IMG/VR virus record: IMGVR_UViG_3300031555_004891
DNA: 64,000 nucleotides
Direction: 5' to 3' (one strand)
Source: a virus
Lineage: Duplodnaviria > Caudoviricetes
Shown here piece by piece: positions 11,788 to 51,545 of this stretch. The translations under genes were made by a program, and so were the position numbers. Position 1 is the stretch's first letter. Each line of letters starts with the position of its first letter. The notes below the pieces were generated by a model. The model saw only the letters and a list, made by a program, of their open reading frames with translations, had not been told where the DNA came from and made no database searches.

Positions 11788-11796
11788 AATAAATAT

Positions 11797-11841
11797 AGAG
11801 AACCATGGAAAAGTTTTAGAAATCCATGGTTCTTTTCTTTT
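11797..11841 (+). terminator. Rho-independent terminator
   Basis: AGAACCATGGA/TCCATGGTTCT stem followed by TTTCTTTT. Confidence 0.7.
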
Positions 11842-11876
11842 ATGACCTGTATAAATATATGTAGGAGATTTTAATT

Positions 11877-14965: not shown

Positions 14966-14972
14966 AAGTTTT

Positions 14973-15021
14973 AGATCAACTGGTAAAAACAGTTGATCTT
15001 TTCTTTATTTTATTATATAAT
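14973..15021 (+). promoter_or_regulatory. Terminator hairpin fused to sigma70-type promoter
   Basis: AGATCAACTG/CAGTTGATCT stem plus T tract; right arm gives -35 TTGATC (14993), 17 nt, -10 TATAAT (15016). Confidence 0.75.
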
Positions 15022-16506: not shown

Positions 16507-16551
16507 TTTTTGACGAGTCTGTTCTGTATAAGATGTAAAAGGAGTATTTAG

Positions 16552-17286
16552 ATGCTTATAGATTTGTTATCAACAGATAATCTTGCAAATTATAATGTTA
16601 AGATAGCTCAGGTAATGGGCTTGCATACCGCTATTTATGTTAATGAGCTTATAAATATAAGTAATAAAGCTACGTAGAAAAATAAGCTTATAGTAGATAA
16701 ATTTTTCATTTTAGATCGAAGATACATCACAAAGCGAACAACCTTAGAGTTGGAAGAGCAATTAGCTATAGATAATAAATTAATGAAAGTAGATGTTATG
16801 CAAAAACCTGCTGGTGAGGTAGATAACATCTATATTGATATAGATAAACTTGCTAGTATGATTTCATCAGATGATAAGCAATTTTTAGATTCTGTCACAA
16901 AAAAGACTAAAGTAAAAACAACAGTTTTACCTGGTATGAAACAGACAATAAAACAAAAGCAAGCGTCTGAGATGAAATCTTATATAACAGTTACTTTCCC
17001 AGAATTGAAAGAAGCTTTCGAAAGTTGGGTAGATGGGGTGCTTGCTAATCCGAAAGGTTTCTTATCTAAGAAAGCAGTGAGCTTATTTCAACGAGATGTT
17101 GATACTTTTGCTAATGGTGATTTAGATATAGCGCTTAAAGTTATTGAAATAGCTACAATAAATGGTTATAGAGACGCAAGCTGGGCTATAAATGTTTTTA
17201 ATAGAGATTATGCAAATAATTTCAGAAATAGATTTGTAAGTACAACTACTCAGAGACGAGCAGAAGTAGCTGATGAGGTGTTTTAA
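16552..17286 (+). CDS. Replication initiator / replisome organizer-like protein
   Basis: ATG after AGGAG; N-terminal YNVKIAQVMGLHTAIY wHTH-like; one TAG at 16675; directly precedes DnaC-like loader. Confidence 0.6.
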
Positions 17287-21173: not shown

Positions 21174-23924
21174 ATGGTAGATTCATTGTGGGGTGATGAT
21201 TTCATTATAAAGAAAACCCCTAAAGAAGCTAAAAAGATAATTAAAAAAATATCTGAGCCAAAAGATTCTTCTTCTGTTGTAAAAAAAGCCGTAAAGTCCA
21301 AAAAACTATCCGTCCATGAAAAGTTAGCTATTATTACCGAGAATGTTAAAAAGATTCTCGGTAGATACGCTGACAACACTCAAGTGATAAGGACACGGCA
21401 AGAGTTAACTGATTATATCGACATAGCTATAAAAAATAATGTAATTGCGGTCGATACTGAAACGAATAACAGTCTTGACCCCATCACATGTAAATTGATG
21501 GGTCCCTGTTTATATACACCAGGTTTAAAGAATGCTTATGTACCATTAAATCATGTTAACCCAGATACTTTAGAAAGATTTGATTGGCAATTAACGGAAG
21601 AAGATGTAAAAGAAGAATTAAGTAGACTTACAGATACTAAAATAATAATGCACAATGGTAAGTTCGACTATTCTGTAATAAAATGCACCACAGGTGTTGA
21701 GTTAAGCATTTATTGGGATACAATGATTGGTGCAAAAGTTTTAGATGAGAATGAGAGGTCAGCTGGTTTGAAACAGCAGTATATCGAAAAGATAGATCCA
21801 TCTATTGAAAAATACTCTATAGATCACTTATTTGAAGATATAGAGTATGCGATGGTTGACCCAGAAATATTTGCTTTATATGCTGCAACAGACTCTTATA
21901 TGACTTATAAGCTTTATGAGTGGCAAAAAGATAAATTTGAGATACCTGGTCACCAGCGTTTATATAGCCTTTTTAGAAATGTAGAGATTCCTGTAATAAT
22001 TCCTATAGCTGAAATGGAAATGACTGGTGTAGAAGTAGATCAAGAATATGCTGAGTTGTTAAGTAAAAAGTATCATAAGAAATTAGATACAATCGATCTT
22101 AAAATAGCTGCAGAGTTAGCTACATTAAAAGATAAAATAGCTGAGTGGCGTTTAACAGAAGATGCTAATTTCCACCCGATAGCAACAAAACCTAACAAAT
22201 ATGGTGAGTATTTAGAGCAAAAATCTAAATCAGAGCAATTAGAAGATCCTATAAACTTAGCCAGTCCAACACAGTTAGCTATATTATTCTATGATATATT
22301 AAAATGTCCACCTGTAGATAAAAAGAAACCTAGAGGAACAGGTGAAGCAGAATTAAAAGCTATAGAGCAGAAATTAAAACTTCCTATTTGTAGCCTTTTA
22401 GTAGAAAGACGTGAATGGGTAAAATTGATAACTACTTACATAGACGTAATTCCGGAACTAGCAAAAAGATGGCCTGATGGTAGAGTTCGTACTCACTTTA
22501 ACCAATACGGGGCAGCTACGGGTCGTATGAGTTCGAGTGATCCGCTGAACCTGTAGAATATACCATCACATAATAAAGAAATCCGTATGTTATTTAGAGC
22601 TGCTGATAATTGTGTATTAGTTGGTAGCGACTTCAGTTTATAAATCTGTTGGCTGAAGTAAAACTTACTTAAACGGGGAACTCTCATTGAGACAATCCCG
22701 TGCCAAATCAATCTTAAGATTGATAGTGCGTAGAGACTATCGAAAAGGTAGGCGTAAGCTGAGTAACTGAGTAGAGTAGGCTTCAAGCGAAGTCGAAACA
22801 GTAAGCAACTAAAAAGTTGAAGAGTTAGTCCGACACTTCTAGTGATAGAAGAGAGGTGTAGCGAGCCTCAAAACAAGAAGCAACAAGAACCTAGATTACT
22901 CTCACAATACTCAGGTGATGAGAATATGATTAATGCTTATAAAGCAGGTAAAGACCTTTATGCTACTATTGCCTGTGGTGTATATAAAAATACGTATTGG
23001 GATAACATGGAGCATTGGGAAGATGGATCACCTAATCCTGAAGGTAAGAAACGTAGAGGTAATTGTAAGAGCTTACTTTTGGGGATAATGTATGGACGTG
23101 GTGTAGCTTCTATAGCTGAACAAATTAAAGGTACAGTAGAAGAAGCACAAAAAATTATCGATGATTTTTACACTGGATTTCCAAAAGTAAAAGAATGGAC
23201 TGATAAAACTCAAGCAGATGCTAAAAAGACTGGTTATGTAGAAGATTTATGGGGTAGAAGACGTAGACTTACAGATCTTATGCTTCCTAAATATACTATT
23301 AAAGACCTTAATGCTGCTAAACTTGATTTTAATCCTATCTTACACGCAGAAGGAAAGTTCTCGAAAAAAGAAAATCCTTCTATACAGAAATATAAAGCAG
23401 CACTTGAAAAAGTTCGCGGTAGAAAAGAATATGAAAAGCTAAAAGAGCAAGCATTGAAAGAAAATATAGAATTGCATGATAACACAGGTTTTATAGCTCA
23501 GGCTGAGAGACAATGTGTTAATGCTAGAATTCAGGGTGGTGCTGCTTCCATGACTAAAGTAGCTGTTATAAAGCTGTATAATGATAAAATTCTCAGAGAT
23601 TTAGGATTTAAGTTAAATATAGCCGTGCATGATGAGTTAATTGGTGAGTGCCCTAAAGAAAATGCAGATGCAGTAGCTGATAGACTTTGTGCTATAATGA
23701 AAGGTGCTGCTGAAGACGTTTGTGATGTACCATTTAAATGTGACCCTACAGTTGAGCATTGTTGGTATTTCTCAGATTTCTGCGATACTGTTCAAAAAGA
23801 ATTTAAAGAAGTTTTGAAAAAGTATAATAATGATTGGAATTCAGCATTTAATTATATGGTAGAAACTCATGAAGAATCAACAATTGATCAATTACATGAG
23901 CTTTTAGATGAAATAGCTGTATAA
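21174..23924 (+). CDS. polA: Family A DNA polymerase, join(21174..22637,22881..23924); no 5'-3' exonuclease
   Basis: Exo I DTET, HNGKFD, TGRMSSSDPLNL[TAG=Q]NIP, motif A DFS|QQEPR split by intron, motif B KSLLLGIMYG, motif C VHDE. Confidence 0.92.
22638..22880 (+). mobile_element. Group I self-splicing intron (243 nt, no ORF)
   Basis: Exon CTTCAGT pairs with IGS GCTGAAG (22652-22658) with U-G at splice site; TGTTG pairs with 3' exon CAACA; P3 CTTACT/AGTAAG; P7 GACTA/TAGTC; terminal G at 22880; removal restores DFSQQEPR. Confidence 0.92.
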
Positions 23925-23934
23925 ATAAATAACA

Positions 23935-23988
23935 ATGCGAAGTTCACACTCGAATATCCTTCGCATAATAAAATAAAACTTTAAGGAG
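23935..23988 (+). promoter_or_regulatory. Putative preQ1-I-like riboswitch
   Basis: Stem ATGCGAAG/CTTCGCAT, loop TTC...ATC, A-rich tail AATAAAATAAAAC running into SD AAGGAG; upstream of a queuosine-precursor transporter. Confidence 0.55.
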
Positions 23989-23997
23989 ATTTTTAAA

Positions 23998-24777
23998 ATG
24001 AGTAAAGTAAAAAATTGGTTTAAGTAGGAATGGAATGAGATCAAAACACTTTTAAGTAATGTTAACCCTTTAGTTATGACCTTTTTTATTCTAGGTGTTG
24101 TGGCTATGAATTTGCTAGCTAATAAGTCTATTGATTTAAGTTTTCTTCCTGGAAATGATGTTAATAACGGTGAGTTTGGTTGGTTAGCTTTAGATTGTGG
24201 CTTTTTAATCTCATGGTTATGCTTTTTTTCAATGGACAATATAGCTAGACGTTTCGGTCCTAAAGCATCAACCCAAATGACCATTGTTGCTATAGTTGTT
24301 AATTTAATTGTTTGTGGAATATTTCTGCTAGCTGGTATAATTCCTGGAACATGGGGTGAAAGTTATGTAGAAAATGGTGCGATTATAAATACTGCTTTAG
24401 ATAACACAATATCTGGAAGTTGGTATGTATTAATGGGATCAACTGTAGCATTTATTTGCTCAGCAATAGTACATGGGTTAGCTAGTACAGCTATAAGCAA
24501 AATCTTTAAGGATAAAGAGACACTTAAAGCATACGCAGTATGTAGTGCAGTAGGAACTAGCTTAGGCCAATTTGTAGATAATATGATTTTTGCTTTAATT
24601 GTAAGCTTAAACTTTTTTGGTTGGAATATTTTACAATGCATAATGTGTTCAATTACTGGTATGATATTTGAGTTTCTAATGAGTGTAATTTTTGTTCCTA
24701 TTGGTCATAAGATATATAAGAATGATCAAGAGCGAGCAAATAGAAAAGATGAGGTAGGATTCGAATGCGAGTTTTAA
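23998..24777 (+). CDS. yhhQ: VUT/YhhQ-family queuosine precursor (preQ0/preQ1) transporter
   Basis: Multi-TM; MNLLANK, DNIARRFGPKA, GSTVAF, GQFVDNMIF motifs; ATG after AAGGAG, TAG at codon 10. Confidence 0.8.
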
Positions 24778-25424
24778 TTACAGGAACATCTAAAGGAATA
24801 GGAAAAGCTATAGCTGAAAAATTTATTTATGAGCATGCTGATTGGGAAATCATTGGCTTTGATAGACTAGATTCTACTATAGATAAACCTAATTACAAAC
24901 ATTATAAAGTAGATGTTAGAGATGTAGAAAATTACCCAGATATTTCTAATATAAATATTATAATTAACAACGCTGGAACTCAGAATGAAGATGATATTAA
25001 CATTAACTTAAAGGGTGCGATTTCTATTACCGAGCGTTATGGAATCCAACCTGGAATTAAAAGTATCTTAATGATTGGGTCAGCGAGTGCACATACTGGT
25101 GATGAATTCCCTCAATACGTTGCTTCGAAAGGTGGTTTAATAGCTTACACAAAAAATGTAGCTAGAAGAATTGCTAAATATGGGGCAACCTGTAACAGCT
25201 TAGACTTTGGAGGTGTTTTAACCGAGTTAAATAAACCTGTTATGGAAAACAAAGAATGCTGGGATAAGATAATGGAAGTAACAGCATTAAAGCGTTGGAT
25301 GGAACCAGAAGAGACAGCTGATTGGGCTTATTTTGTTACTGTAATCAACAAAGGTATGACTGCGCAAACGCTTCTTATTGATAATGGGGAAGCTTCGATT
25401 GTAAACAATTTCCAATGGTGTTAA
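24765..25424 (+). CDS. SDR family NAD(P)-dependent oxidoreductase
   Basis: TGTSKGIG, NNAG, catalytic S...YVASK; overlaps transporter stop. Confidence 0.9.
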   Translation: MRVLITGTSKGIGKAIAEKFIYEHADWEIIGFDRLDSTIDKPNYKHYKVDVRDVENYPDISNINIIINNAGTQNEDDININLKGAISITERYGIQPGIKSILMIGSASAHTGDEFPQYVASKGGLIAYTKNVARRIAKYGATCNSLDFGGVLTELNKPVMENKECWDKIMEVTALKRWMEPEETADWAYFVTVINKGMTAQTLLIDNGEASIVNNFQWC

Positions 25425-25482: not shown

Positions 25483-25513
25483 ATATGTATACTAATAAAA
25501 TGTGAGGTACCGC

Positions 25514-26818
25514 ATGTTTAAAGATTTTGTAGACTTATGCACTAAATTAGCTGGAACAACTAGTCGACTCAAGAAAGAAGAATACTTGAGAGAATATGAA
25601 AATAATGATTATGTAAAGAAATGCTTATATTTTAGATTTAACCCATACATCACTACAGGTATTTCTAAAAAGAAGATTTCTAAATTACAGCAATCATTTG
25701 AAGATAGAATTGTAGACCCTAATTATAATGTTTTAGATCTGCTGGATTATATTAAAGAGCATAATACAGGTAGAGATGTAGATTTGAGCAAGCTTGAGAG
25801 TTATGCTGAGATGAATTCGCCTTACGCTGATATTATTTATGGTTTAGTTTCAAAAGAATTGAATTTAGGTATTCAAGCAATCACACTTAATAAAGTTTAT
25901 GGTGATAATTTTGTTCCAACGTTTGATTTAATGTTAGCTATGAAATATTTCGATGATCCAGATAAATATCTTCCAGATGGTACAGAATTTGACATTACAG
26001 CAAAACTAGATGGCGTAAGATGTGTTTGCTTTTATGATACTGATTCTATTAAATTCTTTAGCCGTCAAGGTCAACCTATTTATGGCTTAAATCAATTGGA
26101 AGAAGCAGTCAGAGAAAACTTAACACCTGGGTATGTTTATGATGGTGAGCTTCTGTTAAATAGATCAGATCTACACAGTAAAGATTTGTATAGAGCAACA
26201 GTAAAAGTAACATCTGCTGATGCTGTAAAAGAAAATATAGTTTTCAATATTTTTGATAGACTTTCAATAGAAGAATTCAAAAGAGGCTATTCGGATAGTA
26301 TTTCTAGAGATAGAAAAGATGCTTTGCATGCAGAATTGCAGCGTAATAAATCAGAATTCTTAAAAGAAGTAGAAATTCTTTATAGAGGAACAGATAAGTC
26401 TAAAATTCAATATTGGTTGGATAAAATTACATCAGAAGGCGGCGAAGGTGTAATGCTCAACTTATGTAATAGTCCATATGAGTGTAAAAGAAGTAAAGTA
26501 ATTCTTAAAGTAAAGAAAATGCAATCCGCAGATTTAAAATGTATTGCAGTAGAAGAAGGTACTGGTCAAAATGTTGGTAGACTAGGTGCAGCTATTGTAC
26601 AACTTCCTGTAGAAGATAAAATCTATGAAGTAAGTGTTGGTTCCGGTTTCACATTCGAAGATCGAGAATACTTCTGGAATAATAGAGAAGAAATTGTCGG
26701 TAAAATTATCGAGGTACAGTATTTCGAGATAACGCAAAACCAGCAAGGCGGATATAGTTTGAGATTCCCTGTATTTAAAGCAGTAAGAAACGATAAAACA
26801 GAAGTATCTATGTTTTAA
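25514..26818 (+). CDS. ATP-dependent DNA ligase
   Basis: TAKLDGVR (KxDG), DGELL, EGVML, LKVK, VGSGF, SLRFPVF; ATG after GAGGT. Confidence 0.92.
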   Translation: MFKDFVDLCTKLAGTTSRLKKEEYLREYENNDYVKKCLYFRFNPYITTGISKKKISKLQQSFEDRIVDPNYNVLDLLDYIKEHNTGRDVDLSKLESYAEMNSPYADIIYGLVSKELNLGIQAITLNKVYGDNFVPTFDLMLAMKYFDDPDKYLPDGTEFDITAKLDGVRCVCFYDTDSIKFFSRQGQPIYGLNQLEEAVRENLTPGYVYDGELLLNRSDLHSKDLYRATVKVTSADAVKENIVFNIFDRLSIEEFKRGYSDSISRDRKDALHAELQRNKSEFLKEVEILYRGTDKSKIQYWLDKITSEGGEGVMLNLCNSPYECKRSKVILKVKKMQSADLKCIAVEEGTGQNVGRLGAAIVQLPVEDKIYEVSVGSGFTFEDREYFWNNREEIVGKIIEVQYFEITQNQQGGYSLRFPVFKAVRNDKTEVSMF

Positions 26819-26916: not shown

Positions 26917-28356
26917 ATGTTGCTAGTAGATTATTATTTTTATATTATTAAAGTATGCTATAAAAATAAGTGTGTATTTAAGTTTGGCGAATCTAAAACT
27001 GATAGACCAAAAAAGCTTTTAAAAGAATATGAAAATAAAAAGAATGTAACTGCAAAACTTCTCTACACAGATACACTTCCAAATAATGGGTATAATAGAT
27101 TATCTGATAAAGTTATTCATAAATATATTTCTAAAATGTATGAAAAAGCTAATAAGTATGAGATTCAAGTAGAGTTGGGTACAACTGATGGAATAACTGA
27201 GTTTTTTATTTGCAAGATTGGAGAATCTGATGATAAACTAGTTGAAAACTTAAAAAATATTGTATATACTATTGATACTAATCATTATAAAATTGCAGTA
27301 GAGTATTTAGATAATATCGAAAAAATACATTTTCCTCAAAACCATCAGGTCTGCTTCTATTATACTGATGCGATGGAAAAATTAGGTAATTTTCAATTAT
27401 GTGATGAGAAAGATAAACTAATAGTACTTATCGGTCAATTTACACCACAATATATAAATAGATTTGCATTCAGAAATAAAATAATAATCTGGCAAGATTC
27501 TGGTGAGACAGAATTTGCTTATGAGGATTCGAGATGTAATCAAAACATCACTTACATTTCAGATTTGGAGACATTAATTAAGATGAATCAAGACAATAAA
27601 TTTAATTATGTTTTAAGCAACCCACCATACGAATTTGCAAGCCAAATAACAAAAGCTATAATTGATAATGTAAACTTTGATACTTTTGTTAATTTAATGC
27701 CATTAAGTGATTATAATAAAGATAGTTTGTATCGATATGTAAGCAAGTTTGAGTTGGTTGACCCTACTAAATTTAAAGATGCGAAAATCACTAAAAATTT
27801 AAACATAGCAGTTATTGAACCAGATATAGTAGATAAATATTCCGATAGAGAATCTTTTGAAATAGAATCTTTTGATCCTAAATTTAAGTTATTTTATCAA
27901 ATTAATACTAATAGAGAGCATTATTGTTTATCTAGCTTTGCTTATGCTTCTAAATTGAAGTTTCAACCTAATCCATATACTGATGTGTATTTAACATTAA
28001 GAACAATCTTTGATGGTGTACATAAAACTAATAACTGCGCTGATTATAAATGGAATATTGAAAAAATTACATCAAATACGTTGTTAATAAAGAATTTTGG
28101 CGGTGAAGATTGTTTGTGGGGTTCTATATTTAGATTTAAAACCGAAATAGAGCATAAAAATTTTTGTACCTGGTGGTATCACGGTAATTTAAGCCACAAG
28201 CTAATAAAAGGATTAAACAAGACTAGTGGCACTCCAAAAATTGCGTTACCTAGAATTGATTGGTCTCGAACAGATGTAGAATATACCGATGAATATGTTT
28301 TAGAACAAATGGGATTAAAATGGAATGAAAATAAAGATGGGGTAGAGAAATTATGA
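26917..28356 (+). CDS. T5orf172/GIY-YIG-like N-domain fused to N6-adenine MTase catalytic/TRD half
   Basis: YFYIIK...FKFGES...VIHKY...TEFF N-terminus; FNYVLSNPPY and LMP motifs; C-terminal LPRIDWS; no intact GxG motif I. Confidence 0.55.
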   Translation: MLLVDYYFYIIKVCYKNKCVFKFGESKTDRPKKLLKEYENKKNVTAKLLYTDTLPNNGYNRLSDKVIHKYISKMYEKANKYEIQVELGTTDGITEFFICKIGESDDKLVENLKNIVYTIDTNHYKIAVEYLDNIEKIHFPQNHQVCFYYTDAMEKLGNFQLCDEKDKLIVLIGQFTPQYINRFAFRNKIIIWQDSGETEFAYEDSRCNQNITYISDLETLIKMNQDNKFNYVLSNPPYEFASQITKAIIDNVNFDTFVNLMPLSDYNKDSLYRYVSKFELVDPTKFKDAKITKNLNIAVIEPDIVDKYSDRESFEIESFDPKFKLFYQINTNREHYCLSSFAYASKLKFQPNPYTDVYLTLRTIFDGVHKTNNCADYKWNIEKITSNTLLIKNFGGEDCLWGSIFRFKTEIEHKNFCTWWYHGNLSHKLIKGLNKTSGTPKIALPRIDWSRTDVEYTDEYVLEQMGLKWNENKDGVEKL

Positions 28357-28674: not shown

Positions 28675-29037
28675 ATGTCTAACTATATAACAATTATTTC
28701 AAAAGAAGATATAAAATATTTACCAGACTGGATAGCATTTGTTATGTTTGCTATTCTAGCAGCTATTGTAATTATTCCAACAGTTATTAGTTGGGCTATA
28801 GTAAAGAAAAAGAATAAACCATGGATTAATATACTTTGTACTGAGGTTATTTCTGGTGCTGTTGCTATTATAGGTGTTATCATTTTTGTTTTTACTGTGC
28901 AACCACATATGTTAGAACCATCAGGAAAATATACATATAAAGCAACTGTTGATAAAAATAAAATTACTGTTTCAGAATATGAAGATTTTATTGAGAAGTA
29001 TAAACCTAAATTTCAAGATGGTTATTATTACTTCTAA
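28675..29037 (+). CDS. Hypothetical membrane protein
   Basis: Two hydrophobic TM segments. Confidence 0.6.
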   Translation: MSNYITIISKEDIKYLPDWIAFVMFAILAAIVIIPTVISWAIVKKKNKPWINILCTEVISGAVAIIGVIIFVFTVQPHMLEPSGKYTYKATVDKNKITVSEYEDFIEKYKPKFQDGYYYF

Positions 29038-29054
29038 GCAGAAGATATAGAGAA

Positions 29055-29270
29055 ATGAAAATATATAATATAGGAAATTATAGAGTACATCTCAGCAATA
29101 AGAAGAAGCCTGAGTCAAATTACAGCAAATTTATTGTTTATAAAAATGGGGTAAAAGGTGACCTAGATGGTGGCTACTTGAGATGGGAAAACGAAGACGT
29201 GATTGTTCCTAGATTAACAAAAGTATTAAAAGAATGGGATAACCTAGATGTTGGAAAAGAAAACATTTGA
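29055..29270 (+). CDS. Hypothetical protein
   Basis: ORF in operon context. Confidence 0.5.
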   Translation: MKIYNIGNYRVHLSNKKKPESNYSKFIVYKNGVKGDLDGGYLRWENEDVIVPRLTKVLKEWDNLDVGKENI

Positions 29271-29982
29271 TTTAATTATAAGCAACCCACCTTATAAATA
29301 TGGGAATGAGGTTATTAAAAATACTTTATAGGTAACCGGAGAAAAAGCCGTTATACTAATGCCTGCTGCTAAATATAAAGCAGATAGGCTTTTCTCCCAT
29401 ATCGAGAATATTGAGTTAGCTGATAAAAATTTCTTTAAAGATAAGAAGCAGGATATTAAACCTGATTTAAGCATAGCTGTATGTGTAGCTGATAGTAATG
29501 ATGAAATAACTTTTGAAAAGGTTATGGATTCTCTATTACCAGAAGATATAGCGCAATTTTTGGACTTAAATAGAAAATTGAGTAAGAAATATGATCGATT
29601 AACTTATATGAAAAGTATGAGAGAAAAAGTTTCTGGAAATAAAGAATATTTTATGGTTCCTTATTGGCAGCATGTTGGTTGTGCTAGATCTGATAAAAGC
29701 GTAACTAGAAAATATAATTTTGGCGATACAGATGCGATAAATAAAATATTAAACAGTGATATGTGCTATAGCGTTTTGAAATTTCCTTCTTCTGCTTATT
29801 GGAATAATTTCTTTAATTGGTATTATAAAAATGATATTCAAGATTATATTTTATTAAACTGCTGTGATTTATTATATCCTAGTTACATATGGTTCCCGCA
29901 GATAGATTTTTCTATAGATAGAGATTATGCAAATTTAACTTTTCTTCAACTTTTAGAAATAATGTTTTCGGAAATAAAGTAA
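29248..29982 (+). CDS. N6-adenine MTase catalytic (NPPY) plus TRD half
   Basis: Code 15: MLEKKTFDLIISNPPY...[TAG 29329]...VILMP; C-terminal FPQIDFS; lacks SAM-binding motif I. Confidence 0.65.
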
Positions 29983-30029
29983 CACAAAATATGATCCTGT
30001 ATAAAGATATAAAGGGGTAATGTACTTTT

Positions 30030-30455
30030 ATGCAATTATCTAATGAAATAAAAGAAAAAATAAAAACAGAATACACAGAGTGGTTTAATTCTCAATATGG
30101 TGATAAAACATTAGAAGAGAGAAGAAAATTAGGTGCTTTTTTCACACCGCCTGAGCTAACCATTAAAATGATAGAGAAATTCGATTCTATAGAAAACAAA
30201 ACTATTCTAGACCCTACATGTGGTACAGGTAATTTATTAGCAGGTTGCATAATAGCAGGTGCTAATCCAGAAATGATTTATGGAAACGAATATGATCCAA
30301 CATTTGTACAGTTATGTAGAGATAGATTGAAAAAATTAGGTGTTCCTGAGTCTAATATACATGAGGGTGATGCACTTAATCCAGAAGCATTAAAGAGAAG
30401 TAATTTCACAGATAACTGGAATAAAGATGTTGGTTGTAAAACAGAATTATGGTAA
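30030..30455 (+). CDS. N6-adenine MTase SAM-binding half (motifs X, I-III)
   Basis: LGAFFTPPEL, ILDPTCGTGNLL, IYGNEYD, GDAL; stops before motif IV; ends KTELW. Confidence 0.75.
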   Translation: MQLSNEIKEKIKTEYTEWFNSQYGDKTLEERRKLGAFFTPPELTIKMIEKFDSIENKTILDPTCGTGNLLAGCIIAGANPEMIYGNEYDPTFVQLCRDRLKKLGVPESNIHEGDALNPEALKRSNFTDNWNKDVGCKTELW

Positions 30456-30464
30456 AAAGATATT

Positions 30465-30623
30465 ATGAAAATTTGGAAAATGAAAGATTGTTTTTATTCA
30501 GATATCATAAAAGAATTAAATAATTTAGAAAAGAAACATGCTGTTGTTAGAGAAATTACAGCTAGTAATGAACACTGGTTTACAATATTTTACACTATAG
30601 AAGATAAGGTAGAAGAAGAATGA
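30465..30623 (+). CDS. Small hypothetical protein (52 aa)
   Basis: ATG 30465, TGA overlapping next ATG. Confidence 0.45.
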   Translation: MKIWKMKDCFYSDIIKELNNLEKKHAVVREITASNEHWFTIFYTIEDKVEEE

Positions 30624-31102
30624 GATTTTGTAATGTATGTGATTGCACAGATGCTAAAAATGATTGCAAGACATGTAAATATAGAGAAGAATGTGATTAT
30701 GTTTGGGTAACAGAAATTTGGAAAAAGAATCAGAAGCTCTTAACGCCATTAAACCCAGGTTGGGTTAAGCCTGATTTTAAAAATAATCACGTAGTAACAG
30801 TTAGTGGTAAATATGATTTTTGTGTTTTTAACGTACCAAAAAAGACTGAGACTATAACTATAAATGACATTTGTGTTGATGAGGCTGGAAGAGGTCAGGG
30901 TTTATCTAAAAAACTTATTTATGGGTTAATGGAAAAATATGATCGAGATATTATAGCTAAATGCGTAAAAGATAGCTCAGCAGAAGATTTTTGGTCTCAT
31001 ATGGGCGAAAAGATAGCAGAAGAGCCTGGTAAGCAACGTCCTTTATCTGTGTATAAGGTACGTAATGAAAAAATGAGTATGAGAAAACAGGAATTATTTT
31101 AA
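30620..31102 (+). CDS. GNAT-family acetyltransferase with Cys-rich N-terminus
   Basis: ICVDEAGRGQGLSKKLI acetyl-CoA motif A, AEDFWSHMG motif B; ends KQELF. Confidence 0.8.
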   Translation: MRFCNVCDCTDAKNDCKTCKYREECDYVWVTEIWKKNQKLLTPLNPGWVKPDFKNNHVVTVSGKYDFCVFNVPKKTETITINDICVDEAGRGQGLSKKLIYGLMEKYDRDIIAKCVKDSSAEDFWSHMGEKIAEEPGKQRPLSVYKVRNEKMSMRKQELF

Positions 31103-31172
31103 TAATTTTATTAAATATGAAAGCACTGTTTTTGTATAAATATAATGAAACATAGACATTTTGGAGGAAGTA

Positions 31173-32234
31173 ATGGAAAAACTAATCAATCAAGATTGGA
31201 CTAATCCTTTTACTAATTGTAAAATAGGTGAAGATTATTATGGAATTATAGCTGCTGGCGAAGGTGTTAAAAATGTAAAAATGCCTGATGGGACTATTCT
31301 TGATGCTAGCGATGTTAAGAGAGATTTGGGTTATCCACAACTTTTTGCTTGGAATTTAGAAGGAAAAGCCTTGTTGGAATGGGTTGAGTATTTAGATAAA
31401 AATCCTGATTGTCCCTGTAAGTTAGTTGTTGACTCAGGTGCGTATTCTATGTGGAGCCGTGGAAAAGAATTTGATATGGATGAGTATATCAATTTCTTAA
31501 ACAGTAATGATGTTATAGAAAAAGCTTTTTGGGTAGCAGAAGCTGACGTTATCCCTGGAAGTATGGGTGTAGATCCAACAGAAGAAGAAAGAGCAGCAGC
31601 ACCTGAAAAAAGCTGGGAAAACTTCTTATATATGGTAGATAGAGTTAAAATTCCTAAGAAAATTGTACCTATTTTCCATCAAGGTGAAGATATCAAGCAT
31701 TTGAGACGAATGTTAGCTTATAGATATCCAGATGGTGATTTCATTCCATATATTGGAATTTCTCCTCGAAATGATGTCCATGTTAATGAAAAATCAAAAT
31801 GGTATGAGTATATTTGGAAAGTTATTTATGAAGATTGTGCAGCTTTAGGTCGGGATATTCCATTGACTCATAACTTTGGTATGACTACTATAGCTCTCAT
31901 GGAGCAGTATCCTAGTTACACATCAGATTCGACTTCATGGATTAGAAGCGCATCTTTTGGTAATATAATGATTATAGTAAATGGTAAAATAAAAACTGTA
32001 TACGTAAGTAATCGAGGATTAGATAGAGATGAGCACATCAATAATCAACCTAAAGCATTAAAAGATGCTGTAGAAGATTGGTGTAAGAAATTAGGCTATG
32101 GCTACACTGTAGAAGCTTTAGTAAATGATGATAATGGAAGCTTGAGAATGATTTGGAATCTTCTAGTTTTAGATCAATGGAGAAAAACCTTCAAATATGA
32201 GGGTACACAATCGTTTAAGACCGAGCTTTGGTAA
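31173..32234 (+). CDS. dpdA: DpdA-type DNA 7-deazaguanine transglycosylase (TGT fold)
   Basis: VVDSGAYS, ADVIPG, VPIFHQGED, HNFGMT, DSTSW motifs; ATG after GGAGG; ends KTELW. Confidence 0.8.
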   Translation: MEKLINQDWTNPFTNCKIGEDYYGIIAAGEGVKNVKMPDGTILDASDVKRDLGYPQLFAWNLEGKALLEWVEYLDKNPDCPCKLVVDSGAYSMWSRGKEFDMDEYINFLNSNDVIEKAFWVAEADVIPGSMGVDPTEEERAAAPEKSWENFLYMVDRVKIPKKIVPIFHQGEDIKHLRRMLAYRYPDGDFIPYIGISPRNDVHVNEKSKWYEYIWKVIYEDCAALGRDIPLTHNFGMTTIALMEQYPSYTSDSTSWIRSASFGNIMIIVNGKIKTVYVSNRGLDRDEHINNQPKALKDAVEDWCKKLGYGYTVEALVNDDNGSLRMIWNLLVLDQWRKTFKYEGTQSFKTELW

Positions 32235-32265
32235 TAAGAAAAAAGACCTGGAGGTATAATATAAA

Positions 32266-33396
32266 ATGATTTTAAGAACAGATGCACTTAAAGATGTATG
32301 TAGTAAGATTTTGAGCGCTGTGGATAGCTCAGAATTATCAGCAGTAACTGAAACGTTAGAATTGAAAGCATTTAATAATGCTTTACATATGCGCGTAACA
32401 AATAAAGAATATTTTGTAGATATTAAGCTTGATGTAGATGGTATTGATAATTTCCACGCTACTGTAAATGCAAATCTTTTCCTTAAGCTTATTTCTCAAA
32501 TTACAACTGAAACTATTGAGCTTAATGTAGTTGATAGAGCTTTAGTCGTAAAAGGAAATGGTGTTTATAAGCTTCCTTTAATTTTTGATGGAGAAGATCT
32601 TCTAGTACTTCCTGAAATTATCATTGAGAATGATACTGTAAACACAAAAATTTCAAGCGAAAATCTTTTGAGTATTTTACAATATAATAGTAAAGAATTG
32701 CTTAAAGGTAATATTGCTAAACCCGTACAAAAATTTTATTATGTAGATGAAAAGGGTGCTATTACTTTCACTACAGGTGCATGTGTAAATAGCTTTAATA
32801 CTGATACACCTTTCACTGTTTTACTTAATAGTAGAATTGTTAAATTATTTAAGTTATTTAAAACTGGTGATGTGCAGTTCACTTTAGGTTATGATGCATT
32901 AAGTGATGATGTTATCCAAACTAAAGTTTGCTTCAAAAATGATAATATAGTATTGACTGCAATTTTGTCCTGTGATGATACTTTGTTAAAGCAAGTTCCT
33001 GTTAATGCTATCAGAGGTAGAGCCGATTTTGTTTACCCTCATTCCATAACTGTTAATAAAGATGCTCTTATCCAAACTATTAGCCGTCTTATGCTTTTTA
33101 GTTCTGGTATTGGTGGTAAAGAAATCGTTAAACCTTACAGTATGTTTGAATTTAAAGAATCTAGTATGATTGTTTGGGATGTTAAGAAAGAGCAAAACGA
33201 AGAAGTTATTTATACTAATTCTGATCCATCACTTTCTACTAAATATACTACTATGTTAGACCTTAATGATTTGAAACTTACTCTCGAGTCTTGCTCAGAA
33301 CAATATGTAACACTTAACTTTGGTAATAAGCAAGCAATGGTGTTAGCTAGAGCAAATGTTAAAACTGTTATACCTGAAATTGTAACCATGGAGTAA
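32266..33396 (+). CDS. dnaN: Sliding clamp (DNA Pol III beta-like)
   Basis: 376 aa three-domain size; N-terminal LKDVCSKILSAV, ATVNANLFLKLISQI pattern; clamp loader genes also present. Confidence 0.75.
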   Translation: MILRTDALKDVCSKILSAVDSSELSAVTETLELKAFNNALHMRVTNKEYFVDIKLDVDGIDNFHATVNANLFLKLISQITTETIELNVVDRALVVKGNGVYKLPLIFDGEDLLVLPEIIIENDTVNTKISSENLLSILQYNSKELLKGNIAKPVQKFYYVDEKGAITFTTGACVNSFNTDTPFTVLLNSRIVKLFKLFKTGDVQFTLGYDALSDDVIQTKVCFKNDNIVLTAILSCDDTLLKQVPVNAIRGRADFVYPHSITVNKDALIQTISRLMLFSSGIGGKEIVKPYSMFEFKESSMIVWDVKKEQNEEVIYTNSDPSLSTKYTTMLDLNDLKLTLESCSEQYVTLNFGNKQAMVLARANVKTVIPEIVTME

Positions 33397-33399
33397 TCC

Positions 33400-33882
33400 A
33401 TGGCTACTAACTATGGGAAACAATTTGAGCAAAAAGTAAGAACAGCATTAGCTAAAATACCTGGTGTATCTGTTGATAGACTTTATGATACTCAAAATGG
33501 GTACAAATCTATAAGTTAGATTTCGGATTGCATAGCATATAAATATCCAGTATTAGTTTACTTAGAGTTGAAAAGTATTCATGGTAATACTTTTCCTCTA
33601 ACTAATTTACATCAATATCCTAAATTACTTACCAAAAAGGGTATTAAAGGCGTAAAAGCTGGTGTTTTAATTTGGTATGTGGATAATGATGTAGAGATTT
33701 TTGTTCCTATAAAATCTTTCGAGAGGATTGTAAAAGAAGGTCATAAATCAATAAATATAAAAACAATTGACCTAGAAGAATATGGAATAACAAAAATTCC
33801 AGCAATAAAGAAGCGAGTTTTTCTAGATTGTGATTATTCTTGCTTATTTGACTTTAATAAGGATGCTAACAATAATGATTGA
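33400..33882 (+). CDS. recU: RecU-like Holliday junction resolvase
   Basis: NYGKQFE...RLYD...[TAG]ISDC...YLELKS...HQ motifs after read-through. Confidence 0.75.
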
Positions 33883-34453
33883 ATTAAAAAATTTTGATAC
33901 TGATAAACTTGAGAATCTTATGACTAATATTGAAACTAATGTAGAATATTTTAATAAAACAGCAGCAGAAGCAGCAGCTAAATACACAGAAGATCTTGAT
34001 GGATTAATGAACGATTTGTATAGCGCTGTAACTCAAGAACATGAAGCAGAAACGCCAACCTTAGAGAGGTATTATCTTGAGCTTACTAATATGCTTTATT
34101 TCATGGCACAAAGAGTCGAGCAGCTTAATGTGTATGCTGATATGGCTAAAGCTCAAGCAAAAGAAGTTTATAATAAATCTTATTTGACAAACAGTGCTGC
34201 TAAGGATGAAAAAGGTAAATCTATGCGAACTGTTGCTGAAAATACAGCTTTAGCAGAAGAAGATTCTAAATATGAGAGTACTCTCGAAACTATTTATAAG
34301 AGCGCATATTCTGTTGCCAAAGCAAAAGTACAGGCTGGCTTTGAGATGGTAAATACGTTGAGAAAAATTCTCACAGTACGTGGCCTTGAAATGCAGTTAG
34401 GTTTGCAAAACACTCGCGGAGAGATGCCTCCAAGATTCGTGGAGGAAGATTGA
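33875..34453 (+). CDS. Hypothetical helical protein
   Basis: ATG 33875 after AAGGA; coiled-coil-like. Confidence 0.55.
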   Translation: MIELKNFDTDKLENLMTNIETNVEYFNKTAAEAAAKYTEDLDGLMNDLYSAVTQEHEAETPTLERYYLELTNMLYFMAQRVEQLNVYADMAKAQAKEVYNKSYLTNSAAKDEKGKSMRTVAENTALAEEDSKYESTLETIYKSAYSVAKAKVQAGFEMVNTLRKILTVRGLEMQLGLQNTRGEMPPRFVEED

Positions 34454-35228: not shown

Positions 35229-36395
35229 ATGACTAAGCTTGAAAAATTAGCATTAGAAATTGATTAGGATTTATTCTCAGATCTTTATTTGAAACAAAAT
35301 AAATCACAGAAGGATTTAGCGCAATATTTTAATGTAACAGTAAGAGATATTGAAGACTTATGTTTTTATTTCCACGCTATTAAGTTAAAGAAAAATTCAA
35401 AATTAGCGAATATTTTAAATAACTTAGATGCTGAAGCATTTATATCTGATAGACAGGTGTTAACATCAGCTGAACTAATAGTAAAATATGACTTAAAAAC
35501 ACATTATTAGTTATAGCGACTTGTTTTATGGACACATTGTTCTCTAACTGTTGAGCAGAAAAATCAAATAACAACACGAAAAATTCGGGAACAAACTGCA
35601 GATAAGAAATTATAGAATGTCTAGAAGTGTAATCAATCAAAAATAGAGCATTATGGATCTCTAGAAGAATGTAACAAACAATCTGTGATTAAAGTTCGAA
35701 AAACAAAACTGGATAGGTACAATGATCCTAAATATAATAATAGAGAAAAATCGAAGCAGACATGTTTTATTAAATATGGCGGACCCTCAAGCATGAATTC
35801 AGCAGAGGTTGTTTAGAAGGGTATGTAGACTAGAGAAAAACATGCTGGATCAATAGCTGCATCATATTCAGCAGGAAAGCTAAAGTAGCAAAAAACACTT
35901 AAAGAAAGATATGATGTAGATTATTTTGTACTACATCCAAAATGTAGATCTAAAATATAGCACACTAAGAATAGTAAACCAAATAAACGGTTCGCTAAAA
36001 TTTTAATAGAAAATAACATTGAGTTTGATCAAGAGTTTTTCCTTGAAAATAAATTTTATGATTTTAAAGTAAAAAATTATTTAATAGAAATAAATCCAGC
36101 GCCTACACATAATAGTTCTATTAATGTATTTGGATCTGATTAGCCTTTAGATAAGTACTATCATAGAAATAAATCTATGTTAGCTTTTAAGAATAATTAT
36201 ATTTGTATTCATGTTTGGGATTGGACAGATATAAATAGCGTATTAAGATTATTATGTACAGATATTTCATTAGATAAAATAATTTTCACAGAACCTTCTG
36301 TATATTATTATAATATAACAAAAAAGAAACTAACAGATATGTCAGATCCCAATGCTGTATAGATTTGGGATGATGGATTAAAAATAATGGAGTAA
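35229..36395 (+). CDS. Free-standing PD-(D/E)xK-type homing endonuclease-like protein (388 aa, code 15)
   Basis: 11 in-frame TAG; KQTCFIKYG / KTLKERY repeats, YDFKVKNYLIEINP..THNS, YHRNKS, CIHVWDW; GGAGG RBS. Confidence 0.7.
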
Positions 36396-44697: not shown

Positions 44698-45714
44698 ATG
44701 GCGCAAAGCTTAGCAGTCAGATACAGACCAGAAACACTAGAAGAGGTTGTTAGCCAAAAATCAGTTATCAAAATTCTTAATAAGCAGTTGCAGCTTGACC
44801 AATTGAAACATAATTATTTATTCTGTGGTCCTAGCGGCACAGGGAAGACAACTACTGCCCGTGCGTTTGCAAAACTTATAAACGAAGGTGTTGGTGATCC
44901 TATAGAGATTGATGGCGCATCAAACAATGGTGTAGAAAACGTCAGAGCTATTATCAAAAATGCTCAAGAAAGATCTATTGAGGGTAAATATAAGATCTTT
45001 ATTATCGACGAAGCGCATATGATAACAACTGCTGGCTGGAATGCTTTTCTTAAATGCATTGAAGAGCCACCTGCTTTTACCATTTTTATGTTTTGTACTA
45101 CTGACCCCCAAAAAATACCTGCAACAATTATTAATCGTGTTATGAAGTTTCAACTCACAAAGATTGAAACAAATCTTATAGTCGATAGATTGAAATACAT
45201 ATGTAAATGCGAAAATGTTTCATACACAGATGAGGCTATTGAGTTTATCGCAAAAGTTGCTGATGGTGGTATGCGTGATGCTATAGCGAGTATGGAACAG
45301 TGTATTGATTATGGTGAGCTCAATATTGATAATGTTTTAACTGTATTAGGTTCTTACTCATATTCGATGTTTTTCAATCTAGTTAACTACATTATAGATG
45401 GAAAAGACCCAGAAGTGTTACAAACTGTAGAAGATGTGTATAATCAAGGATCTGATTTAAAACTTTTTGTAGAGCAATTTTTGAATTTCTGTTTAGATGT
45501 AGCTAAATATGCTATTTTTAATAATTGTTCGATGGTAAAGATACCTTCAAGCATGGAGCAAGACCTTAAAAATGCTACAAACTTCGAGAACGCTTCTAAA
45601 TATTATATGTATTTGACTGATAAGCTTCTCGATTTAAAAGTTATATTGAAAAATGACACAAATATTAAAGACACTGTAGAAGTTTATTTCTTAAAAATGT
45701 CTAGATGTATGTGA
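44698..45714 (+). CDS. dnaX: Clamp loader ATPase (DnaX gamma/tau-like)
   Basis: YRP, GPSGTGKTT, IDGASN, IIDEAH, EEPP, GGMRDA. Confidence 0.92.
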   Translation: MAQSLAVRYRPETLEEVVSQKSVIKILNKQLQLDQLKHNYLFCGPSGTGKTTTARAFAKLINEGVGDPIEIDGASNNGVENVRAIIKNAQERSIEGKYKIFIIDEAHMITTAGWNAFLKCIEEPPAFTIFMFCTTDPQKIPATIINRVMKFQLTKIETNLIVDRLKYICKCENVSYTDEAIEFIAKVADGGMRDAIASMEQCIDYGELNIDNVLTVLGSYSYSMFFNLVNYIIDGKDPEVLQTVEDVYNQGSDLKLFVEQFLNFCLDVAKYAIFNNCSMVKIPSSMEQDLKNATNFENASKYYMYLTDKLLDLKVILKNDTNIKDTVEVYFLKMSRCM

Positions 45715-45721
45715 GGTTTAT

Positions 45722-46504
45722 ATGGTAGGTCAAGAGCATATAATTAAATATATAGATAATAAGACCAGGGATACTTTCCCTAGGTCTTTAATACTATTAG
45801 GTGAAACAGGTTGCGGTAAACATACTGTTATAGCATACATAAAGGATAAACTTAAACTTGAGGTAATTAATATATCTGATAATCTAAATCTAGAATTTAT
45901 AGAAAATCTTTATAGTAAACCAGAGCCTTATATTTATGTTATAGACGCACCTAAGATAACGATTAAAGAGCAGAATATAATTCTTAAATTTGTAGAAGAG
46001 CCACTTAAAAATTCTTATATAATTATTATTGCTGAAACAAAAAATCAGCTTCTACAAACTGTTTATAATAGATGTCAAGTGTTATCTTTTAATCCATATA
46101 GTAGAGAGCAGTTACAGCAATTCACATCAGATGAGTTGGTTCTCAAAATAGCTAAAACACCAGGTCAAGTAACTGATCTTTTAGCTAGTGATTTGAAAAG
46201 TATGCTTGAGTTAGCTGAAAAGATTGTAAGAAAGATTGGTAACGCAAATTTACCGAATGTTTTAACAATATCAGATAAAATAGCTTATAAGAATGAGAAA
46301 GATAAATTTGATCTAGATATTTTTTCAAGAATTCTGTTATATACTGTAAAGCAGGAAATTATCTGTAATAACACAGACCCTAGATATCTAGCTATGTATG
46401 ATTTAGTACGAGAATGGTTACTAAAGAAAAAAGCACCAACTATAAGTCAAAAATTCTTATTTGAAAATTATCTAGTTAAATTACATGAGCTTATGAGAGG
46501 TTAA
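45722..46504 (+). CDS. holB: Clamp loader delta-prime-like subunit
   Basis: MVGQ, GETGCGK, QNIILKFVEEP, TVYNRC. Confidence 0.8.
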   Translation: MVGQEHIIKYIDNKTRDTFPRSLILLGETGCGKHTVIAYIKDKLKLEVINISDNLNLEFIENLYSKPEPYIYVIDAPKITIKEQNIILKFVEEPLKNSYIIIIAETKNQLLQTVYNRCQVLSFNPYSREQLQQFTSDELVLKIAKTPGQVTDLLASDLKSMLELAEKIVRKIGNANLPNVLTISDKIAYKNEKDKFDLDIFSRILLYTVKQEIICNNTDPRYLAMYDLVREWLLKKKAPTISQKFLFENYLVKLHELMRG

Positions 46505-46505
46505 T

Positions 46506-47426
46506 ATGACTATTGAAAGCTTAAAAGAGTTAATTGAAACAAATGCTGATTTAGATAGTATGTATATTTTTTTGAATTCTGAAAATACTTTTCTATCAAA
46601 TCAATATATAGTAGAGATTTCAAAAAAGAAAAACTTAAAAATAGTTTACGTAGAGGATCTTAAAGCTCTTATTCCAGATAAGAATGATATTTTTGGCGTA
46701 GAAGAAACTATAGATAGCACCTGCTTATATGTTCATCATCAAGAAACATTTGATTTTAAAGATTCTAGTTTGAAAGAATTAAAGAATCTTATCATTGTTT
46801 GCGATAAGATTGATGATGAAACAAAAGAAATTTTTGATCCATATATTATAAAAATGCCAAGACTAGAAGAGTGGATGATAAAAGATTATGTATACACTAT
46901 AGCAGATGGGGTAGATACTGTTAAATTAGATTGGCTTATAAAAGTTGCTAATAATGACATTTATCGCATAGAAAATGAAATAGCAAAAATATCTATATTT
47001 CCTAAAGTTGAAAGAAATTATATTTTTGATCTTCTTATGGAAGAAGATGCTTTTGCTGACTTAAATAACTATCACATATTTGACTTATCTACAGCATTGT
47101 TACAGAAAGACCTGATTAAAATTGCTGAGTTAGTAGAAGATGTTAAAAGTTGGGATTGTGAACCGCTCGGCTTGCAAGTATTAACTTCTCAGAATTTTAG
47201 AAAAGTTTTACAAATTCAGTTATCCCCTAAACCAGATCCAGATAAATTAGGCTTAACTAGTAAACAGATTTGGGCTATACAAAAATATAACTGTGGCTTT
47301 TATTCTAGAGATCAATTAGTAAAGATTTTTGATAAAGTAACCTATGCAGATTATATGATGAAAAATGGTGACTTATCGAATGATAAGCTAGTTGATTATT
47401 TAATTCTTAATATTTTATCGGCATAA
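46506..47426 (+). CDS. holA: Clamp loader delta-like subunit
   Basis: NDIYRIENEIAKI, IFDL, EPL, D..MKNG pattern; synteny with dnaX/holB. Confidence 0.7.
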   Translation: MTIESLKELIETNADLDSMYIFLNSENTFLSNQYIVEISKKKNLKIVYVEDLKALIPDKNDIFGVEETIDSTCLYVHHQETFDFKDSSLKELKNLIIVCDKIDDETKEIFDPYIIKMPRLEEWMIKDYVYTIADGVDTVKLDWLIKVANNDIYRIENEIAKISIFPKVERNYIFDLLMEEDAFADLNNYHIFDLSTALLQKDLIKIAELVEDVKSWDCEPLGLQVLTSQNFRKVLQIQLSPKPDPDKLGLTSKQIWAIQKYNCGFYSRDQLVKIFDKVTYADYMMKNGDLSNDKLVDYLILNILSA

Positions 47427-51542: not shown

Positions 51543-51545
51543 CCT

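Follow-up and report, generated by a model that had tools for sequence, protein, structure and literature searches.

A C-terminal Leu-aromatic peptide shared by DpdA and other DNA-acting enzymes of a tailed phage is probably a sliding clamp tether

Introduction

Why do three unrelated enzymes, encoded side by side in a phage genome, end in nearly the same short peptide directly before the gene of a sliding clamp? The question is raised by a locus of the virus record IMGVR_UViG_3300031555_004891 (Duplodnaviria; Caudoviricetes), of which a stretch of 64,000 nucleotides (nt), hereafter the window, was analysed. In this locus, the S-adenosylmethionine (SAM)-binding subunit of a split N6-adenine DNA methylase, a GNAT-fold acyltransferase-like protein and a DpdA-type DNA guanine transglycosylase terminate in CKTELW, RKQELF and FKTELW, respectively, and the gene of a beta-type sliding clamp begins 31 nt after that of DpdA (Table 1). 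A first reading of the locus, made without database searches (the sequence-only reading), had noticed these ends together with the end of a DNA ligase (KTEVSMF) and the start of a family A DNA polymerase, PolA (MVDSLW), all of which are present as it described, and had proposed that the enzymes ride the phage clamp and modify nascent DNA.

Insertion of 7-deazaguanines into phage DNA by DpdA has been described as post-replicative (PMC10516641), and a single transglycosylase has to find much of the guanine in a genome that replicates fast; a tail that binds the clamp would provide DpdA with a concrete means of doing so. The current study reveals that the shared tail is selected as a peptide, is conserved in homologues from other phages and is restricted to enzymes that act on DNA. 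Based on these findings and on a structural model, we consider it likely that the tails hook DpdA, the GNAT-like protein, the methylase subunit and the ligase onto the clamp of the phage itself.

Three unrelated neighbours share a C-terminal peptide

The sequence K[TQ]EL[WF], which together with its variants is referred to below as the tag, occurs just three times in the 20,541 residues encoded by the window, each time at one of the three C-termini. Among the 81 proteins of the window a C-terminal [DE]L[WF] is expected 0.05 times and observed three times (P(≥3) approximately 2e-5), this motif having been picked post hoc. Four of the five codons differ between the two KTELW tails, and so do the flanks, which places selection at the level of the peptide rather than the DNA. 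A DNA-level repeat behind the tails was rejected for the same reason and because the repeat search yielded only a 26-nt match of 73% identity. All three tagged genes stop at TAA, which matters because the window phage reads TAG as sense (see below).

The window DpdA is homologous to characterised phage DpdA and retains the conserved Asp motifs of the tRNA-guanine transglycosylase (TGT) type: D91-S92 (within a DSG stretch) and S255-D256-S257 are invariant in the alignment and, from what is known of TGT, we take them to be the catalytic motifs. It is 34–40% identical to the DpdAs of phages Dp-1 (34%), MS1 and Flasso, CAjan-type DpdAs also being matched by tblastn, and it is predicted to insert a 7-deazaguanine base into DNA. 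Translation more likely starts at ATG 31173, which lies behind GGAGG and gives 353 amino acid (aa) residues as in the closest homologues, than at TTG 31161 (357 aa). Of 120 DpdA homologues (56–92% identity), 110 end in L-[WF] and nearly all others in L-W followed by one or two residues, with [FY]Kx[DES]LW as the consensus.

A similar picture emerges for the other two proteins. Among the 120 homologues of the methylase subunit, 104 end in L[WF]. Most representative GNAT homologues, down to 25–30% identity, end in x-x-L-[FW] after a variable linker (in the model of the window protein, residues 148–160 are coil), and one homologue has QLSLF, the canonical bacterial clamp-binding motif, at the tail position; more remote GNATs stop directly after the last strand, without a tail. 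The form of the tail varies by lineage, being mostly [DE]LW in the lineage of the window, KLF in the L013 lineage (L numbers denote loci from other phages) and mostly QELF or MELF in Queuovirinae.

Proteins that carry the tag

In order to assess the specificity of the tag, all open reading frames (ORFs) of seven loci from different phages were clustered, which produced 24 families with at least three members. Tagged members were found for DpdA (7/7), GNAT (5/5), the methylase subunit (3/3), the ligase (2/3) and a short-chain dehydrogenase/reductase (SDR; 1/5), and in none of the other 19 families. The free-base enzymes QueC, QueD, QueE, FolE and QueF are untagged in the relatives that carry them, whereas a DUF6884 protein encoded beside DpdA in relatives with biosynthetic genes ends in KFELF and DpdA itself in KTELF. 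As tagged enzymes are those acting on DNA and enzymes of the free base are untagged, this distribution indicates that the tag marks DNA-acting proteins.

Ligase and polymerase are textbook clamp clients. Relatives of the window ligase end in EISLF and EISMN, and the ligase is likely a clamp client here also, as judged from its tail. The N-terminus of PolA is maintained in close relatives as M-V/T-(L)-DSLWGD, while a distant lineage starts with MDLFK. Polymerases encoded right after the clamp in phages CAjan, 9g, RHEph06 and Yong-L2-223 (L022 3601-, L023 3425-, L024 3770- and L025 3392-, respectively) share an N-terminal G-[FL]-F-W-x-D, which may represent an N-terminal clamp-binding motif like the DSLW of the window. 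The motif is therefore common to several unrelated proteins, being C-terminal in DpdA, GNAT, the methylase subunit, the ligase, the DUF6884 protein and a 258-aa protein, and N-terminal in PolA.

The 258-aa protein, encoded upstream of the helicase loader, is 37.5% identical to a protein of L003 (12203–12955) whose gene comes after that of the clamp and whose end is SDEVF; the L003 protein encoded next to it (12955–13530) closes with LIELW. From their ends, all three are possible further clamp clients.

DpdA tails in phages with and without a clamp gene

The sequence-only reading had suggested that conservation of the motif be compared between clamp-encoding and clamp-lacking phages, and the outcome of this comparison supports its reading. 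Among GenBank phages, eleven DpdAs end in L-[FW], namely those of CAjan (VMELF), 9g (QDLF plus two further residues), NP1 (IQELF), MiCath (VQELF), Vibrio phage 033B (QPGLF), Rhizobium phage RHEph06 (EQRLF), Synechococcus phage Yong-L2-223 (DPVLF), Dp-1 (QRRLF), MS1 (QNRLF), Flasso (QGKLF) and Edwardsiella phage ZHS (KQSLW). A clamp or ‘DNA polymerase III’ gene adjoins dpdA or lies near it in ten of these eleven, ZHS standing outside the neighbourhood count. In contrast, six DpdAs of five actinophages (Qyrzula, Hilltopfarm, Sonali, Finch and Megan) have unrelated ends, and a search with the clamp profile phrog_947 gave no match in these five genomes while matching all five clamp-bearing controls (E 1e-56 or better). 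This profile was used in place of PF00712, which is too insensitive as a phage clamp detector (one of five known positives matched, and that weakly).

The clamp and the modelled docking of the DpdA tail

The AlphaFold2 (AF2) model of the product of the gene at 32266 (pLDDT 86) has the three-domain protomer of the DnaN fold: residues 1–374 align to bacterial DnaN structures with Z 29–30 and a root-mean-square deviation of approximately 3.2 Å over some 340 residues. Sequence identity to bacterial DnaN is 10–15%, and a profile matches Helicobacter pylori DnaN with E 7e-8. The sequence-only reading was thus right in naming this gene a clamp, while its allusion to T4 gp45 did not hold, since the structure alignment assigns the protein to the bacterial beta type. 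In one lineage (L013 10745–12085) the clamp has an N-terminal extension of approximately 85 residues that matches DUF3268.

A complex model of the clamp with DpdA residues 326–357, both entered as alignments, attained a score of 0.74, as against 0.02 for the best of three controls; substitution of the clamp by an unrelated protein gave 0.02. The 0.74 mark is reached by 58 of 80 solved complexes and by two of 110 mismatched pairs, these being rough counts because alignments of our own were used. Separate runs agree in at least 86% of contacts, and the partner has a pLDDT of at least 49. Only residues 349–357 of DpdA make contact, and on the clamp side residues 168–172, 245–252, 289, 291, 330–332, 356–357 and 368–376 are involved, positions presumably equivalent to the peptide cleft of the Escherichia coli clamp, formed by domains II and III, and to its C-terminal strand. 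In its likeness to known complexes, the model would seat the tail of DpdA in the canonical pocket of the clamp encoded next to it.

Table 1. Features of the window that are discussed in the text, with their positions.
Feature	Coordinates	Strand	Remarks
SAM-binding subunit of split N6-adenine DNA methylase	30030..30455	+	141 aa; motifs X, I-III, no NPPY; tail KTELW at 30438-30452
GNAT-fold acyltransferase-like protein	30620..31102	+	160 aa; N-terminal Cys cluster; tail KQELF at 31085-31099
DpdA-type DNA guanine transglycosylase	31173..32234	+	353 aa; tail KTELW at 32217-32231; phrog_887 E 1e-43
Beta-type sliding clamp, proposed docking partner	32266..33396	+	376 aa; phrog_947 E 5e-12
ATP-dependent DNA ligase	25502..26818	+	tail KTEVSMF at 26795-26815; phrog_114 E 3e-83
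N-terminal part of family A DNA polymerase	21174..22643	+	one in-frame TAG; DSLW at 21180-21191; PHROG E 4e-52
258-aa protein upstream of helicase loader	16510..17286	+	ends ADEVF; no Pfam or PHROG match
Vut_1/YhhQ-type queuosine-precursor transporter	23998-24777	+	Pfam Vut_1 E 1e-15; TIGR00697 E 2e-7, below its cut-off; untagged
SDR oxidoreductase	24765-25424	+	overlaps transporter gene; adh_short E 3e-15; untagged
NPPY/target recognition domain (TRD) subunit of split methylase	29248..29982	+	untagged; seen only with TAG as sense; starts at FDLIISNPPY
Second NPPY/TRD protein, extra N-terminal domain	26917..28356	+	untagged; holds FNYVLSNPPY
Three clamp-loader subunits	44698..47426	+	phrog_5846, phrog_168, phrog_20214

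A clamp tether and its alternatives

The combined findings point to x-[DE]-L-[WF]-COOH as a putative clamp-binding motif, a lineage-specific form of the bacterial QL[SD]LF/QxxLF. The terminal Leu-aromatic pair would anchor in the hydrophobic cleft between domains II and III of the beta-type clamp, a short flexible linker thereby tethering DpdA, the GNAT-like protein, the SAM-binding methylase subunit and the ligase to the clamp encoded next to them. The phage clamp loader would leave the clamp on newly made duplex, such that the tethered enzymes could act on fresh DNA behind the fork, where DpdA would exchange guanine for a salvaged 7-deazaguanine base, the GNAT-like protein would probably acylate something on or at that DNA, and the methylase would make N6-methyladenine (m6A). 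The earlier suggestion that these enzymes ride the phage clamp has gained substance in that portable, selected tails sit on DNA-acting enzymes, have been kept in hundreds of homologues, are lacking in six DpdAs of clamp-less phages and, in the case of DpdA, are modelled in the clamp pocket; for the binding step as such, the support is that model.

Several points weigh against a clamp tether. Phylogeny confounds the comparison of clamp-encoding with clamp-lacking phages, the tail-less DpdAs forming an actinophage group of their own, and a GNAT homologue ending in KLF adjoins the terminase in a small temperate phage with neither clamp nor DpdA within 12 kb. The DpdA and methylase tails of the window (KTELW) lack the defining Gln of the bacterial motif, and a terminal Trp is unusual; it may be added that the Gln is present in the GNAT tail (KQELF) and in most other DpdA clades (QELF, QRRLF, QGKLF). 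DpdA supplied the one tail in the complex model, so that the case for physical binding is model-based, and with many beta-clamp-peptide complexes already solved its high score may reflect recall, making it a sign of likeness and not of binding. Furthermore, conservation at the modelled interface does not exceed that of the entire clamp (0.71 versus 0.73, permutation p 0.66); the variable last four clamp residues lower the interface mean, and F168, G171, A172, P245, R252, D332, A357, V368, P370 and E371 are each at least 93% conserved.

Of the alternatives to a clamp tether, the one that survives best is that the tails dock on another replisome hub (the family A polymerase, the single-stranded DNA-binding protein (SSB) or the helicase), or that they join the modifying enzymes into a separate assembly that does not involve the clamp. 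In T7-type family A replisomes the polymerase is bound by acidic tails that end in an aromatic residue, those of gp4 and gp2.5, and the DnaB-like helicase of the window ends in GEDEF, while an acidic residue precedes L-[WF] in the tails described here. On the other hand, the Leu-aromatic end, the QLSLF of a GNAT homologue and the near-canonical EISLF of a ligase fit clamp motifs, the modelled tail occupies the clamp pocket and loses its score when an unrelated protein replaces the clamp, and dpdA adjoins or lies near the clamp gene in ten checked GenBank phages; docking on another hub therefore appears unlikely. Binding to the host beta clamp, instead of or besides that of the phage, would be a variant of the clamp tether and not a contradiction of it, and would suit a motif whose class is bacterial and which is canonical (QLSLF) in one homologue, as well as the KLF-ended GNAT homologue of the small phage with no clamp gene in view. 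We accord this variant little probability, since the tails follow phage-encoded clamps and vary by lineage, which suggests that each is matched to the divergent clamp of its phage.

It is very improbable that the tail directs sorting or turnover, for instance as a C-terminal degron read by a host protease or as a capsid packaging signal, and would thereby limit the enzymes in time or space: non-polar C-termini are indeed recognised by tail-specific proteases and ClpXP-type adaptors, and the tagged proteins, all of them early or middle enzymes, might have to be removed, but the N-terminal motif of the polymerase, the tracking of clamp gene presence and the specific, confident docking in the modelled pocket would be left unexplained. 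Finally, coincidence or a DNA element overlapping the three gene ends (a repeat, recombination scar or terminator), which the mere five residues of the motif and its post hoc choice might favour, can be dismissed as practically negligible and is already refuted by the differing codons and unrelated flanks, by the chance estimate and by conservation of the tail in hundreds of homologues of DpdA and the methylase subunit from other phages.

Relation to known clamp-binding and DNA modification systems

The closest parallel to a clamp tether of this kind is provided by the bacterial beta-clamp-binding motifs QL[SD]LF/QxxLF of Pol III alpha, Pol IV, Pol I, LigA, MutS and Hda. In both cases a terminal peptide on a flexible linker carries a Leu-aromatic anchor and many unrelated clients would share one three-domain clamp; the modelled site, comprising the cleft between domains II and III and the C-terminal strand of the clamp, is also the same, and the N-terminal motif of Hda resembles the N-terminal version on the window polymerase. 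According to the titles of PDB entries, even Ac-LF binds the E. coli clamp. The window differs in that its proposed clients are DNA base-modifying enzymes, Gln is often replaced (KTELW), Trp is the commonest last residue, and the clamp is phage-encoded and highly divergent from DnaN. The clients of T4/RB69 gp45 (gp43, gp55 and gp33), with their hydrophobic C-terminal tails, are another instance of a phage-encoded clamp used as a tool belt through C-terminal peptides, but gp45 has the two-domain protomer of the gp45/PCNA type, whereas the window clamp has the dimeric-type beta fold and is accompanied by a family A polymerase. In eukaryotes, DNMT1 binds PCNA through a PIP box, and here also attachment to a clamp lets a DNA-modifying enzyme work on nascent DNA immediately; the two cases differ in clamp, motif, chemistry and domain of life, and DNMT1 maintains a pattern, whereas the window system would modify the genome de novo.

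A literature search produced no paper in which base-modifying enzymes are beta-clamp clients or in which DpdA or deazaguanine DNA modification is linked to a clamp. Relative to the searchable literature, what is new are the client classes and the lineage-specific form of a known beta-clamp-binding motif. The described phage DpdA1 systems of CAjan (dPreQ0), 9g (dG+) and Dp-1 (PMC6884629, PMC10516641) share with the window a homologous transglycosylase, a dpdA gene that adjoins or lies near the clamp gene and an L-F end, and differ in carrying FolE, QueD, QueE and QueC, where the window has a transporter, an SDR and the GNAT-like protein; neither of these two papers mentions a clamp.

If the tether is real, the beta-clamp tool belt extends from polymerases, ligase and repair proteins to base-modifying enzymes, and bacterial viruses have an equivalent of the pairing of DNMT1 with PCNA. 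Lack of the cognate clamp could then also account for the poor activity of some DpdAs produced on their own in E. coli, failures having been reported for DpdA3 and DpdA4 (PMC10516641). The same tail is present on the DpdAs of CAjan, 9g, NP1 and Dp-1, which are phages that can be grown and engineered. Moreover, the clamp tail of a phage on one of its unassigned proteins would be a good pointer to a DNA-acting enzyme, and in this manner flags the GNAT-like protein, the DUF6884 protein and the 258-aa protein.

A putative salvage cassette and the role of the GNAT-like protein

The GNAT gene immediately precedes dpdA in the window, L001, L002, L012, L013/14 and L028/29, and 4 kb away in L006. A Vut_1 and SDR pair, as in the window (Table 1), is found near GNAT-DpdA in L001, L002, L006, L013/14 and L028/29, i.e. 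wherever the flanks reach far enough, and the SDR is 54–55% identical even where the clamp is just 26% identical (pairs at L013 9385–10745 and L028 1050–2570). Besides these genes, L028 and L029 carry an amidase, and L029 a second Vut_1. Using queries from Dp-1, Flasso, L008 and L011, tblastn searches of the window for QueC, QueD, QueE, QueF and FolE returned nothing below E 0.19, and the complete 138.9-kb genome behind L001 (G001) has neither QueC nor QueF. As no genes for deazaguanine biosynthesis were found in the window and no QueC or QueF in this relative, the gene content indicates that the GNAT-SDR-transporter-DpdA cassette salvages its base. An Rfam scan of the window gave no family at the gathering score and, in 23800–24150 upstream of the transporter, no PreQ1 family even at E values up to 10, though the model may miss a variant.

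In relatives with biosynthetic genes, a DUF6884 protein takes the place of GNAT and SDR. In L008, a 125-aa protein with weak similarity to xanthine phosphoribosyltransferase (6543–6920) lies inside the biosynthetic operon and the DUF6884 protein with its KFELF end (8478–9032) beside DpdA; by their gene context, both are candidates for enzymes of further deazaguanine steps.

The AF2 model of the GNAT-like protein has a pLDDT of 93.7, the Foldseek and PDB-profile matches are all GNATs (top matches with a TM of approximately 0.6), profiles match RibT and YpeA (E 7.5e-7 to 1.8e-4, with RibT at 7.5e-7), and the acyl-CoA motif is aligned at RGQGLS with a nearly invariant R91; single-sequence Pfam matches to GNAT are weak and below the cut-off. 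Cys115 is nearly invariant across the whole family. The N-terminal cluster of C4, C7, C9, C16, C19 and C25 (30620–30700) is kept in the large-phage branch and absent from the branch of 136–148 aa, and is possibly a metal site.

The GNAT-like adenine modifier Mom of phage Mu shows that DNA bases can be the target of enzymes with a GNAT fold. No specific similarity to Mom was found for the window protein, a fold search for such a specific relative returning generic GNATs alone, with protein and small-molecule N-acetyltransferases as the best neighbours. NCBIfam gave no specific name for GNAT, DpdA, DUF6884 or the NPPY subunit. From the linkage and the tag of the GNAT-like protein, DNA-level acylation of a deazaguanine is the most economical guess for its activity.

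DpdM (a DUF3109 dPreQ1 methylase) and DpdN (a formyltransferase) are encoded beside dpdA, and a role in decorating dPreQ1 within DNA at its aminomethyl group has been suggested for them (PMC10516641); no acetylated derivative appears in that paper. The tagged GNAT-like protein could be a decorator of a third kind: held on the clamp beside DpdA, it would N-acylate (in the simplest case acetylate) the aminomethyl group of the base in nascent DNA, the base being salvaged via Vut_1 and the SDR taking a step, so that the cassette may make a new DNA base that has not been described. The overlap of one distant GNAT homologue with queF (L011) fits an amine (preQ1) substrate, while the facts that GNAT phages make no preQ1 themselves and that the GNAT fold is generic weigh against N-acetyl-dPreQ1, which leaves this idea tentative and, in our estimation, doubtful. 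The window proteins differ from DpdM and DpdN in fold and cofactor in the case of GNAT and, in the case of the methylase subunit, in being a Rossmann N6_Mtase and not a DUF3109 protein; a Pfam scan of both returned neither a DUF3109 nor a formyltransferase match.

The split adenine methylase

The 141-aa methylase subunit matches Pfam N6_Mtase (E 2.7e-9) over positions 20–121 of the 311 of the profile. Its 120 homologues are of like length (119–158 aa, most of them 137–148 aa) and all lack NPPY, for which reason it is regarded as a stand-alone SAM-binding subunit. The product of 29248–29982 is a paralogue of residues 223–479 of that of 26917–28356 (E 1e-12). The elements of a gamma-class split N6-adenine methylase, i.e. 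SAM motifs X and I–III, NPPY and TRD, are thus all present, distributed over separate proteins. The ‘MTase half’ of a DNA hypermodification toolkit, as it had been termed in the sequence-only reading, is indeed a tagged DNA-modifying subunit, but the N6_Mtase profile and the separate NPPY/TRD partners make it probable that the enzyme produces m6A and stands outside deazaguanine chemistry.

Genetic code and replication module

The window is part of a large phage genome of low GC content (approximately 30%) with every gene on the + strand, and nucleotide similarity of positions 29000–34000 to GenBank phages was not found. By several sequence signs, TAG is a sense codon in this phage. Read-through of TAG fuses ORFs at 5622–9638 into 1338 aa with six TAG and at 12203–14965 into a terminase-like protein of 920 aa with seven TAG, an ORF at 35229–36395 holds eleven in-frame TAG, and the in-frame TAG of PolA aligns with Gln in three relatives of standard code. 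Such signs occur in 1–15000 and 50000–60600 as well as in 21174–22643, 29248–29982 and 35229–36395. Among the relatives, L006 and L008 also look TAG-sense, TGA is Trp in L003, and L001, L002 and L013 are standard.

The tagged genes lie in a replication module with a DnaC-like loader, a DnaB-like helicase, primase, SSB, the split family A polymerase, the transporter, the SDR and the ATP-dependent ligase; after them follow the sliding clamp, a RecU-like resolvase, dUTPase, a UvsX/RecA-like recombinase, topoisomerase II and the three clamp-loader subunits. The order DpdA, clamp, RecU, dUTPase, RecA is common to the window, Streptococcus phage Dp-1 and Bacillus phage Flasso, and in Dp-1 the clamp loader is shared too. 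The acidic tail of the DnaB-like helicase (17957–19234), closing in Phe, recalls those of T7 gp4 and gp2.5. The family A polymerase is split over 21174–22643 and 22842–23924, approximately 200 nt apart; in relatives it is whole (L008, 834 aa), split (L001) or split with a 317-aa ORF in between (L002), which suggests a mobile insertion or intron site.

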